From the IMG/VR virus record IMGVR_UViG_3300037137_001027, positions 1-64,000 of that record: 64,000 nt of DNA. One strand, 5' to 3'. Source of the DNA: a virus. How positions within the stretch are numbered: the first letter of the stretch is position 1; each line of letters opens with the position of its first letter. Shown here piece by piece: positions 43,216 through 43,527 of the stretch. The notes under the pieces were generated by a model, which was not told the origin of the DNA, ran no database searches, and saw nothing but the letters and a program-made list of their open reading frames with translations. Both the position numbers and the translations under genes were made by a program.

Positions 43216-43527
43216 ATGGAAATAGGTCAATGGGTCGCCCGCACTAAAACCCCCTACGAAGACTTCGACAGATTCACCTGAAGGCCACACTCATTCGGGC
43301 AGGTTGTCCGAAGAATAGATGAAGAATATAATCCCCCGCAAGAAGTATACAAGGTGAAACTGTTTTGCCCTAAGTGTATGCACAACAATGGTTTGGGTGA
43401 ACCATTTGATGATATGCCAGCAGAAAAAGACTGGCATATTGAAGAGATTGTAATACTAGATAGTTTGGAACTAGAAAATAGAATATCGAAACATGAAAAG
43501 GAATGTTATGCCGCCAGCAATTTGTAA
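43216..43527 (+). CDS. Candidate selenoprotein B (103 aa, in-frame TGA at codon 22; UxxH...CxxC)
   Basis: GAGGT RBS; single TGA at 43279-43281, then 81 open codons; SECIS-like hairpin. Confidence 0.68.
43294..43312 (+). promoter_or_regulatory. Bacterial SECIS-like hairpin
   Basis: TTCGGGCA-GGT-TGTCCGAA; GGU starts +21 after the UGA. Confidence 0.65.

Follow-up and report, generated by a model that had tools for sequence, protein, structure and literature searches.

A conserved in-frame UGA codon followed by a SECIS-like hairpin in a small gene of an uncultured huge phage

Results

Organization of gene B and its product

The window analysed in this study covers the initial 64 kb of an IMG/VR virus record of 159,507 bp (hereafter G000), which represents a fragment of the genome of an uncultured huge phage and originates from sediment metagenomes. 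On the plus strand of the window, the reading frame here designated gene B extends from ATG at 43216 to the stop codon TAA at 43525-43527 (43216-43527; 103 codons before the TAA) and contains a single in-frame TGA at 43279-43281, which follows 21 sense codons, is itself codon 22, and is followed by 81 open codons. A Shine-Dalgarno (SD) sequence, GAGGT (43205-43209), is located 6 nt upstream of the ATG and overlaps the TGA stop codon (43204-43206) of the upstream gene. This arrangement, including the SD sequence, the start, the lone TGA and a CPKC motif within the 81 downstream codons, had been described in the original prediction and was confirmed in the sequence in all respects.

All the remaining elements of gene B also lie on the plus strand. 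The N-terminal 21 codons (43216-43278) encode the pattern M-x-[IL]-G-[QK]-W-V-A-R-T ... D-F-D-x-F-T, on which selection acts at the protein level. The TGA, a candidate selenocysteine (Sec) codon, is separated by a 12-nt spacer of 4 codons (43282-43293), invariant in length and variable in sequence, from a SECIS-like hairpin with an 8-bp stem and a GGU loop (43294-43312). Further downstream are a GTG (43354-43356), raised in the original prediction as an alternative internal start but rejected as a conserved one (see below), and the conserved C-terminal core of residues 48-97 (43357-43506). The core carries the invariant motifs K-L-F-C, C-M-H, E-K-D-W-H and H-x-K-E-C, and since C51, C54, H56, H74, H93 and C97 are invariant among the relatives, it is probably a small Cys/His metal-binding module. 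Profile searches of Pfam, PHROG and PDB gave no family for the gene B protein or for the neighbouring proteins, and a look-up of the post-UGA part in the ESM Atlas returned nothing. An AlphaFold2 model based on the 4-sequence alignment reached a mean pLDDT of 54.6, which is too poor to judge residues 1-50 as one domain. No paralogue of the N-terminal module was detected in G000 or in the related 341-kb record G001.

The two genes flanking gene B (42670-43206 and 43508-43801; also L011:928-1761) are conserved across related huge phages and encode a 178-aa protein of unassigned family and a double CxxC zinc-ribbon protein, respectively; the last 20 nt of gene B overlap the zinc-ribbon gene. In the 595-kb phage LR756511.1, gene B is absent and its two flanking genes abut. 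Because the flanking genes are conserved and abut in this phage, gene B is, as judged from gene order, an inserted accessory gene, which exists in a long form with UGA and in a short form described below.

Relatives of gene B and conservation of the UGA codon

With the part of gene B after the TGA as query, HMMER was run exhaustively against 1.84 billion representatives and recovered three other lineages; a further match, a stump of 49 residues, is identical to the C-terminal end encoded in the window itself. No additional lineage came from searches by words, by pattern or by tblastn. The search of IMG/VR for the DNA pattern returned only the known relative, a further match (L010) being rejected as due to chance; from the metagenomes, the scan recovered nothing beyond one short fragment with the window's own sequence, and the genome scan gave no match. 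The family thus far comprises four lineages, three with the TGA and one without this region, and all four proteins are singletons in their clusters.

One of the relatives, L002, is 68% identical to the window in protein and is carried on a JGI contig of 623 kb, of which G001 (341 kb) and G002 are the IMG/VR cuts; G001 is syntenic with G000 at about 70-80% nucleotide identity. The second, L006 (56% protein identity), is a 1.7-kb Logan contig. Both share the layout of gene B (L002:3938-4243 and L006:980-1297): an SD-like purine run precedes the ATG, 20-21 codons keep G-x-W-V-A-R-T and D-F-D-x-F-T, the TGA falls in the same alignment column, and the conserved sequence P-x-S-F-G-Q-[VI]-V-R-R-I follows. 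The comparison of codon 22 among homologues, proposed together with the original prediction, thus showed TGA to be kept at the same codon in the orthologues, while the Cys homologue it had looked for did not appear: among 1.84 and 5.8 billion proteins, IMG/VR, metagenome contigs and GenBank phages, no homologue was found with Cys or any sense codon at position 22. The window sequence was also recovered with its TGA intact from an independent sediment sample of another study (X3), and therefore the TGA is no assembly error.

The third relative, L005, is the short form of 58 residues, which starts just before K-L-F-C, is directly coupled to the upstream gene, and lacks the N-terminal module, the TGA and the hairpin. 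With respect to the metal or redox site U-x-x-H plus C-x-x-C once suggested for gene B, neither half is conserved. His25 is replaced by Asn in L002; in place of CPKC, both L002 and L005 have a C-x-C motif, the relatives reading C-G-C or C-P-C; and the whole N-terminal 45 residues, including the UGA position, are missing from L005.

In the three-way codon alignment of the UGA-containing lineages, the pairwise differences within the 21 N-terminal codons are distributed over the first, second and third codon positions as 13/10/27, and 19 of the 38 differing codon pairs are synonymous. The same bias continues after the TGA (4/2/7 in the spacer and 15/11/23 in codons 34-46). Synonymous changes are many, for instance among GGT, GGC and GGA for Gly, TCA, TCG and TCT for Ser, and GTA and GTC for Val; the replacements are conservative (V/I, D/N, K/R), and no indel breaks the frame. 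Between the TGA and 43354, all three lineages keep 24 open codons that contain no indels and are conserved as protein, and neither the +1 nor the -1 frame stays open beyond 16 codons. Both flanks of the UGA hence evolve as coding sequence in one and the same frame, as observed in three lineages. The codon directly 3' of the TGA is AGG in the window, ATG in L002 and CTG in L006, and the GTG at 43354, which the original prediction had raised as a possible independent start, is GTA in L002 and GTT in L006; the three lineages therefore have no restart codon in common, which leaves read-through as the sole way in which all of them can make the conserved protein downstream.

Constraint on the hairpin downstream of the UGA

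The hairpin is composed of TTCGGGCA (43294-43301), the loop GGT (43302-43304) and TGTCCGAA (43305-43312), and its loop begins 20 nt after the UGA. The 8 pairs of the stem include one G.U pair, and the minimum free energy (MFE) is -10.4 kcal/mol with a z-score of -1.0, so that by energy alone the window hairpin is not unusual. In L002 and L006, different lower stems, built partly from non-synonymous differences, bring the MFE to -16.4 and -17.6 kcal/mol (z-scores, -3.2 and -3.8). The 8-bp stem itself is identical in all three lineages. Its only variable adjacent base is the one just 5' of the stem, which is the third position of a Ser codon, is predicted to be unpaired, and is A, G or U. Since the stem never varies, there is no compensatory covariation (0 of 12 pairs). 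The loop is GGU in the window and L002 and GAU in L006, an unusual loop that is awkward for SelB binding.

Among the codons for conserved residues, all six within the hairpin are identical in the three lineages as against 17 of 39 elsewhere (Fisher p=0.012), and the seven hairpin codons carry no synonymous change at all. This codon-level constraint argues for selection on the hairpin at the level of the RNA.

The consensus for the bacterial SECIS (bSECIS) element requires a loop of 3-9 nt, an upper stem of 4-16 bp and an MFE not above -7.5 kcal/mol; the first or second position of the loop must be G (the usual pattern being G[G|U]), and the apical loop must lie 16-37 nt from the UGA (PMC13188914). 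The gene B hairpin agrees with this consensus in loop (3 nt), stem (8 bp) and MFE in all three orthologues, and the distance between UGA and loop is 20 nt in each of them and also in gene A described below. The loop G is likewise present throughout, the GAU of L006 satisfying the minimal rule only and not the usual G[G|U]. A search of Rfam over 43100-43600 gave no match even at E-values up to 10. The 19-mer sequence of the hairpin is present in 14 other viral contigs, belonging to about three unrelated sequence groups and none having an in-frame TGA 12 nt upstream as in gene B, and this number roughly corresponds to chance expectation.

Rarity of the UGA-hairpin geometry and a companion gene

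The 159.5-kb record was scanned for TGAs followed, at a distance of exactly 20 nt, by a loop that starts with GG and is closed by a stem of 6 bp or more. This geometry follows only 7 of 5418 TGA trinucleotides (0.13%), and both of the in-frame TGAs at 43279 and 21231 are among the seven. As to genuine stops, for which such hairpins might have been equally common, the geometry was found after only one of the 77 TGAs that terminate an ORF of 100 aa or longer; two real TGA stops having a GG-loop hairpin nearby were set aside as chance matches.

The TGA at 21231-21233 belongs to gene A (21102-21371, plus strand), a companion candidate in the same window, whose hairpin TGCTGC-GGTC-GCAGCA (21248-21263) also has its loop 20 nt after the TGA. 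The identical spacing noticed originally in genes A and B is thus borne out, with proteins and stem sequences being unrelated: the stems are 8 bp in gene B and 6 bp in gene A and the spacers 12 and 14 nt, and the loop distance is equal. Both genes are small and ORFan-like, lie in one record, carry a GGU-type loop and keep the TGA in relatives. In a 90% identical relative of gene A (L024), the TGA and hairpin are kept, and an A-to-G change preserves a U.G pair.

A difference between the two genes resides in their homologues. For gene B no Cys homologue was found, whereas the gene A TGA aligns with Cys in gp253c of the cultured Caulobacter phage C2 (E-value 5e-13; G-Y-U-Y-E versus R-W-C-Y-E), with no gap nearby. 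In P0005, another relative of gene A, the position is occupied by a sense residue, but the alignment of this stretch is ambiguous. The UGA/Cys pair of gene A argues that the host decodes Sec, and together with the common loop distance it makes Sec the best reading for gene B as well.

A third possible gene with UGA and hairpin was noted on the minus strand of the related 341-kb record (L028:12273-12500, equivalent to G001:72273-72500). It consists of a strong SD sequence (AAGGAG), ATG, 7 codons, TGA and 67 open codons with no nearby ATG, and its hairpin, CTGGCA-GGT-TGCCAG, has the loop 22 nt after the TGA and an apical sequence resembling that of gene B. No relatives of this gene were found, and it carries no conservation support.

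Selenocysteine machinery and the host

No tRNA-Sec, selB or selD was detected in the four related phage records searched (G000, G001, G002 and LR756511.1), so far as the phages themselves are concerned. The largest huge phages have been predicted to infect Bacteroidetes (PMC7162821). The window carries a gene for glutamine-dependent NAD synthetase (26141-27841; CN_hydrolase and NAD_synthase domains, E-value 8e-64), and this phage NadE is nearest to Bacteroidia MAGs, at 39% identity. Neither SelB nor SelA was found in any of the 301 sampled Bacteroidia, and SelB was found in one of 401 sampled genomes of the phylum of Bacteroidia. An SD-like (GGAG-type) motif is located upstream of about 50% of genes in G000, G001 and LR756511.1, compared with about 10% in controls; the Bacteroidia MAG nearest in NadE has it upstream of 6% of genes, below its own control. 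This difference in SD use suggests that Bacteroidia are not the host and that the host employs SD-led initiation. The usual host assignment to Bacteroidetes for phages of such size may fail for this group.

Besides these genes, a tmRNA with the tag ATPYEYALAA was identified at G001:8558-8914, and an array of 16 tRNA genes within about 10 kb at G001:100426-109686 (L020). All the tRNAs of the array are of the long-variable-arm types (Leu, Ser, Tyr), with no class I tRNA detected by ARAGORN.

Discussion

Proposed decoding of gene B

The same TGA in three independent lineages, with coding conservation on both sides and an invariant hairpin downstream, gives good support to a programmed and conserved UGA read-through with a dedicated hairpin, in which we place high confidence. 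Insertion of Sec through a bacterial-type SECIS is the leading mechanism that we propose for this read-through, at about an even chance. Accordance with the original selenoprotein reading is partial: recoding stood, together with the view that such TGAs are unlikely to be random nonsense mutations, since the recoding signal has a geometry common to gene A; the identity of the residue as Sec keeps its inferred status, neither a Cys homologue nor, in the phage records searched, Sec machinery having been found.

As we picture the mechanism, the segment 43216-43527 would be a single gene read from ATG at 43216 through the UGA at 43279 to the TAA at 43525. Host SelB bound to Sec-tRNA(Sec) would read the UGA as selenocysteine, the hairpin at 43294-43312 recruiting SelB as an in-ORF SECIS of the bacterial type; SelB as the reader and a Sec-decoding host are parts of the same proposed picture. 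Because the stem begins 12 nt after the UGA, the hairpin would still be folded, and its GGU loop presented, when the UGA occupies the A site, as reckoned from the known dimensions of the ribosome. Equality of the loop distance in genes A and B is what is expected for a loop-binding factor such as SelB. Terminating ribosomes would release a 21-residue peptide only, and the full product would be a protein of 103 residues. In this protein, Sec would lie within an appended N-terminal module (about 45 residues) that is joined to the small Cys/His-rich core. For the function of this protein, a selenol/thiol metal or redox site is our guess.

Against the insertion of Sec, an ATG stands directly after the TGA in L002, permitting termination and restart there. 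The presence of the short form in L005 and the absence of the gene from LR756511.1 point to the Sec-bearing N-terminal part being dispensable. The GAU loop of L006, the invariance of the stem without covariation, and the failure to find tRNA-Sec, selB or selD in the phage records searched also weigh against Sec, as would, for a Bacteroidia host, the results on SelB and SelA. So does the failure to find a Cys homologue in the collections searched. Nearly all selenoproteins have Cys homologues (PMC13188914). Gene B may represent a selenoprotein family without Cys counterpart, the second selenoprotein in one huge phage, in which the UGA and SECIS also act as a switch for an optional N-terminal module; we consider this possible, at slightly below an even chance. 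As such a switch, the full-length protein would be formed only in a host with active Sec machinery and selenium, and the 21-residue peptide would be made otherwise.

Other explanations of the conserved UGA

Programmed read-through might instead insert a standard residue, Trp or Cys, by a near-cognate tRNA, the hairpin slowing termination or acting through another factor. The 21-residue peptide and the 103-residue protein would then be produced at a fixed ratio, as for the Qbeta coat protein and A1, and continued translation would matter rather than the identity of the residue. The conserved TGA, the coding flanks and the lack of a restart codon fit this explanation equally well as they fit Sec. 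It also draws support from the failure to find a Cys homologue, from the absence of Sec machinery in the phage records searched and the sampled Bacteroidia, and from the GAU loop of L006. Still we hold it unlikely, for what genes A and B have in common is the 20-nt distance to the loop, their stems being 8 and 6 bp long, and not the distance to the stem base. The spacer of 12-14 nt leaves the hairpin outside the ribosome, whereas the known stimulators of read-through and frameshifting sit closer than this. Moreover, the gene A TGA pairs with Cys in a homologue, and the base after the gene B UGA is A, A or C, which makes no consistently leaky context.

A division into two cistrons, in which a conserved leader peptide of 21 residues would be followed by a downstream protein made by reinitiation or from an internal start, with the hairpin tuning coupling or mRNA stability, is in our estimate quite improbable. 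It is suggested by the sequence TGA-ATG of L002, where gene callers start the protein, and by L005, whose start lies immediately ahead of K-L-F-C and close to the site of GTG 43354, a sign that the core can stand alone. A conserved start at or next to the stop, as termination-reinitiation demands, is lacking, however: the ATG exists in L002 only, and without an SD sequence upstream, the window and L006 having AGG and CTG after the TGA and the orthologues having GTA or GTT in place of the GTG. Yet none of the three lineages has a stop or an indel in the 24 codons ahead of 43354, and the protein sequence they encode is conserved. Furthermore, the stop at codon 22 is TGA in all three, and yet TGA ends only 77 of 277 long ORFs. 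Bypass of the T4 gene 60 type, with matched take-off and landing codons and an untranslated gap, was rejected, as conservation resumes in frame directly after the TGA and the first five codons thereafter contain no in-frame ACC or other Thr landing codon.

Reassignment of TGA over the whole genome or by stage, through genetic code 4 or 25 or a phage-encoded suppressor tRNA with UCA anticodon, is very improbable, even though relatives of the phage carry many tRNAs. The standard code (code 11) fits G000, 80% of which is covered by ORFs of at least 100 aa, and TGA serves there as an ordinary stop, as counted above. tRNA-Glu is the sole tRNA in G000, and a tRNA with UCA anticodon is found neither in G000 nor in the 341-kb G001. 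Instead of the many in-frame TGAs that reassignment implies, a plausible in-frame TGA bridging an otherwise unexplained gap occurs in two genes only of G000, genes A (21231) and B (43279). When all the stop-spanning frames were compared between G000 and G001, the TGA at 43279 was judged to be the sole convincing conserved in-frame stop within a true coding frame.

Several other frames attracted attention. The TGAs at 81098 and 92559 of G000 were rejected as in-frame codons, being ordinary gene ends beside a repeated promoter motif. An intergenic repeat that translates as G-C-T-N (ggttgtactaat...) directly follows many stops (36679 in the window, 89278 and 92559 in G000, and elsewhere); it is a 19-bp promoter-like motif, which gives spurious conserved read-through frames in comparative scans. 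Beyond the window, a TAG-containing frame at G000:104320-104560 keeps its TAG in G001, with 74% translated identity on either side and no alternative frame open across the TAG. This frame could be a recoding site, a non-coding element or an antisense artefact.

Decay of the gene or an artefact, that is, a nonsense mutation or assembly error plus a chance hairpin, is hardly credible despite the z-score of -1.0 of the window hairpin and the dispensability of the gene (absent from LR756511.1 and short in L005), because three lineages have the same TGA despite numerous synonymous differences between them, an independent sample carries it too, purifying selection persists downstream, the hairpin is invariant, and protein identities of 56-68% exclude one recent lineage.

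Implications

A 2026 review of the prokaryotic selenoproteome makes no mention of phage or virus (PMC13188914), and in a 2021 review of viral recoding the viral selenoproteins are from poxviruses only (PMC8310308). If the UGA of gene B is read as Sec, bacteriophages encode selenoproteins and exploit the SelB/SECIS pathway of the host, and phages would be regular users of the host's system for the 21st amino acid. The two unrelated genes with equal UGA-loop distance would then constitute a built-in reporter pair for the SECIS rules of an uncultured host. Should the residue be an ordinary one, gene B would still be an example, rare among dsDNA phages, of programmed UGA read-through that is conserved and associated with a hairpin. 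In the databases, these genes are represented only by stumps of 49-79 residues; gene callers cut at the UGA, and therefore genes of this kind are systematically missed.

Comparison with known recoding systems

Phages with recoded stop codons, in which TGA or TAG is reassigned and suppressor tRNAs are employed, resemble gene B in that an in-frame stop is read as sense. G000 differs from them in having two such codons in 159.5 kb, TGA as a normal stop, and no suppressor tRNA found.

Read-through of UGA at the Qbeta coat gene to form A1 has been named the first discovered case (PMC8310308). As proposed for gene B, a phage UGA is passed there by some ribosomes, and short and long products share a common N-terminus. 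In Qbeta no conserved hairpin at a fixed distance is known to be needed, and the short product is the main functional protein; in gene B the short product would be only 21 residues long, and a conserved hairpin follows the UGA.

The viral selenoproteins of poxviruses are glutathione peroxidase (GPx) homologues of fowlpox and molluscum contagiosum viruses (PMC8310308). Here too a viral UGA is redefined by means of the host Sec machinery, and the fowlpox SECIS lies in the coding sequence. The poxviruses, however, use a eukaryotic SECIS and eukaryotic factors for captured host GPx genes of known function, whereas gene B has an element of the bacterial type in a gene of no known family.

The bacterial selenoprotein genes, with E. 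coli fdhF as the prototype and SelB as the reader of the SECIS, likewise combine an in-frame UGA with a stem-loop inside the coding sequence. Gene B differs from the fdhF type in being a phage and not a cellular gene, in having no Cys homologue found and no Sec machinery found in the phage, and in the absence of a redox motif flanking the UGA. In the fdhF hairpin, the loop is GGUC (4 nt) and stands 18 nt from the UGA, and a U is bulged out of the stem four pairs beneath it, whereas the loop of gene B is 3 nt (GAU in one orthologue) and its only unpaired base stands below the 8-bp stem. With the bSECIS genes, gene B shares the 8-bp stem, the GGU loop 20 nt from the UGA, an MFE lower than -7.5 kcal/mol and the constraint on synonymous sites of the hairpin codons, and its apical sequence GCAGGU presumably matches that of fdhF.
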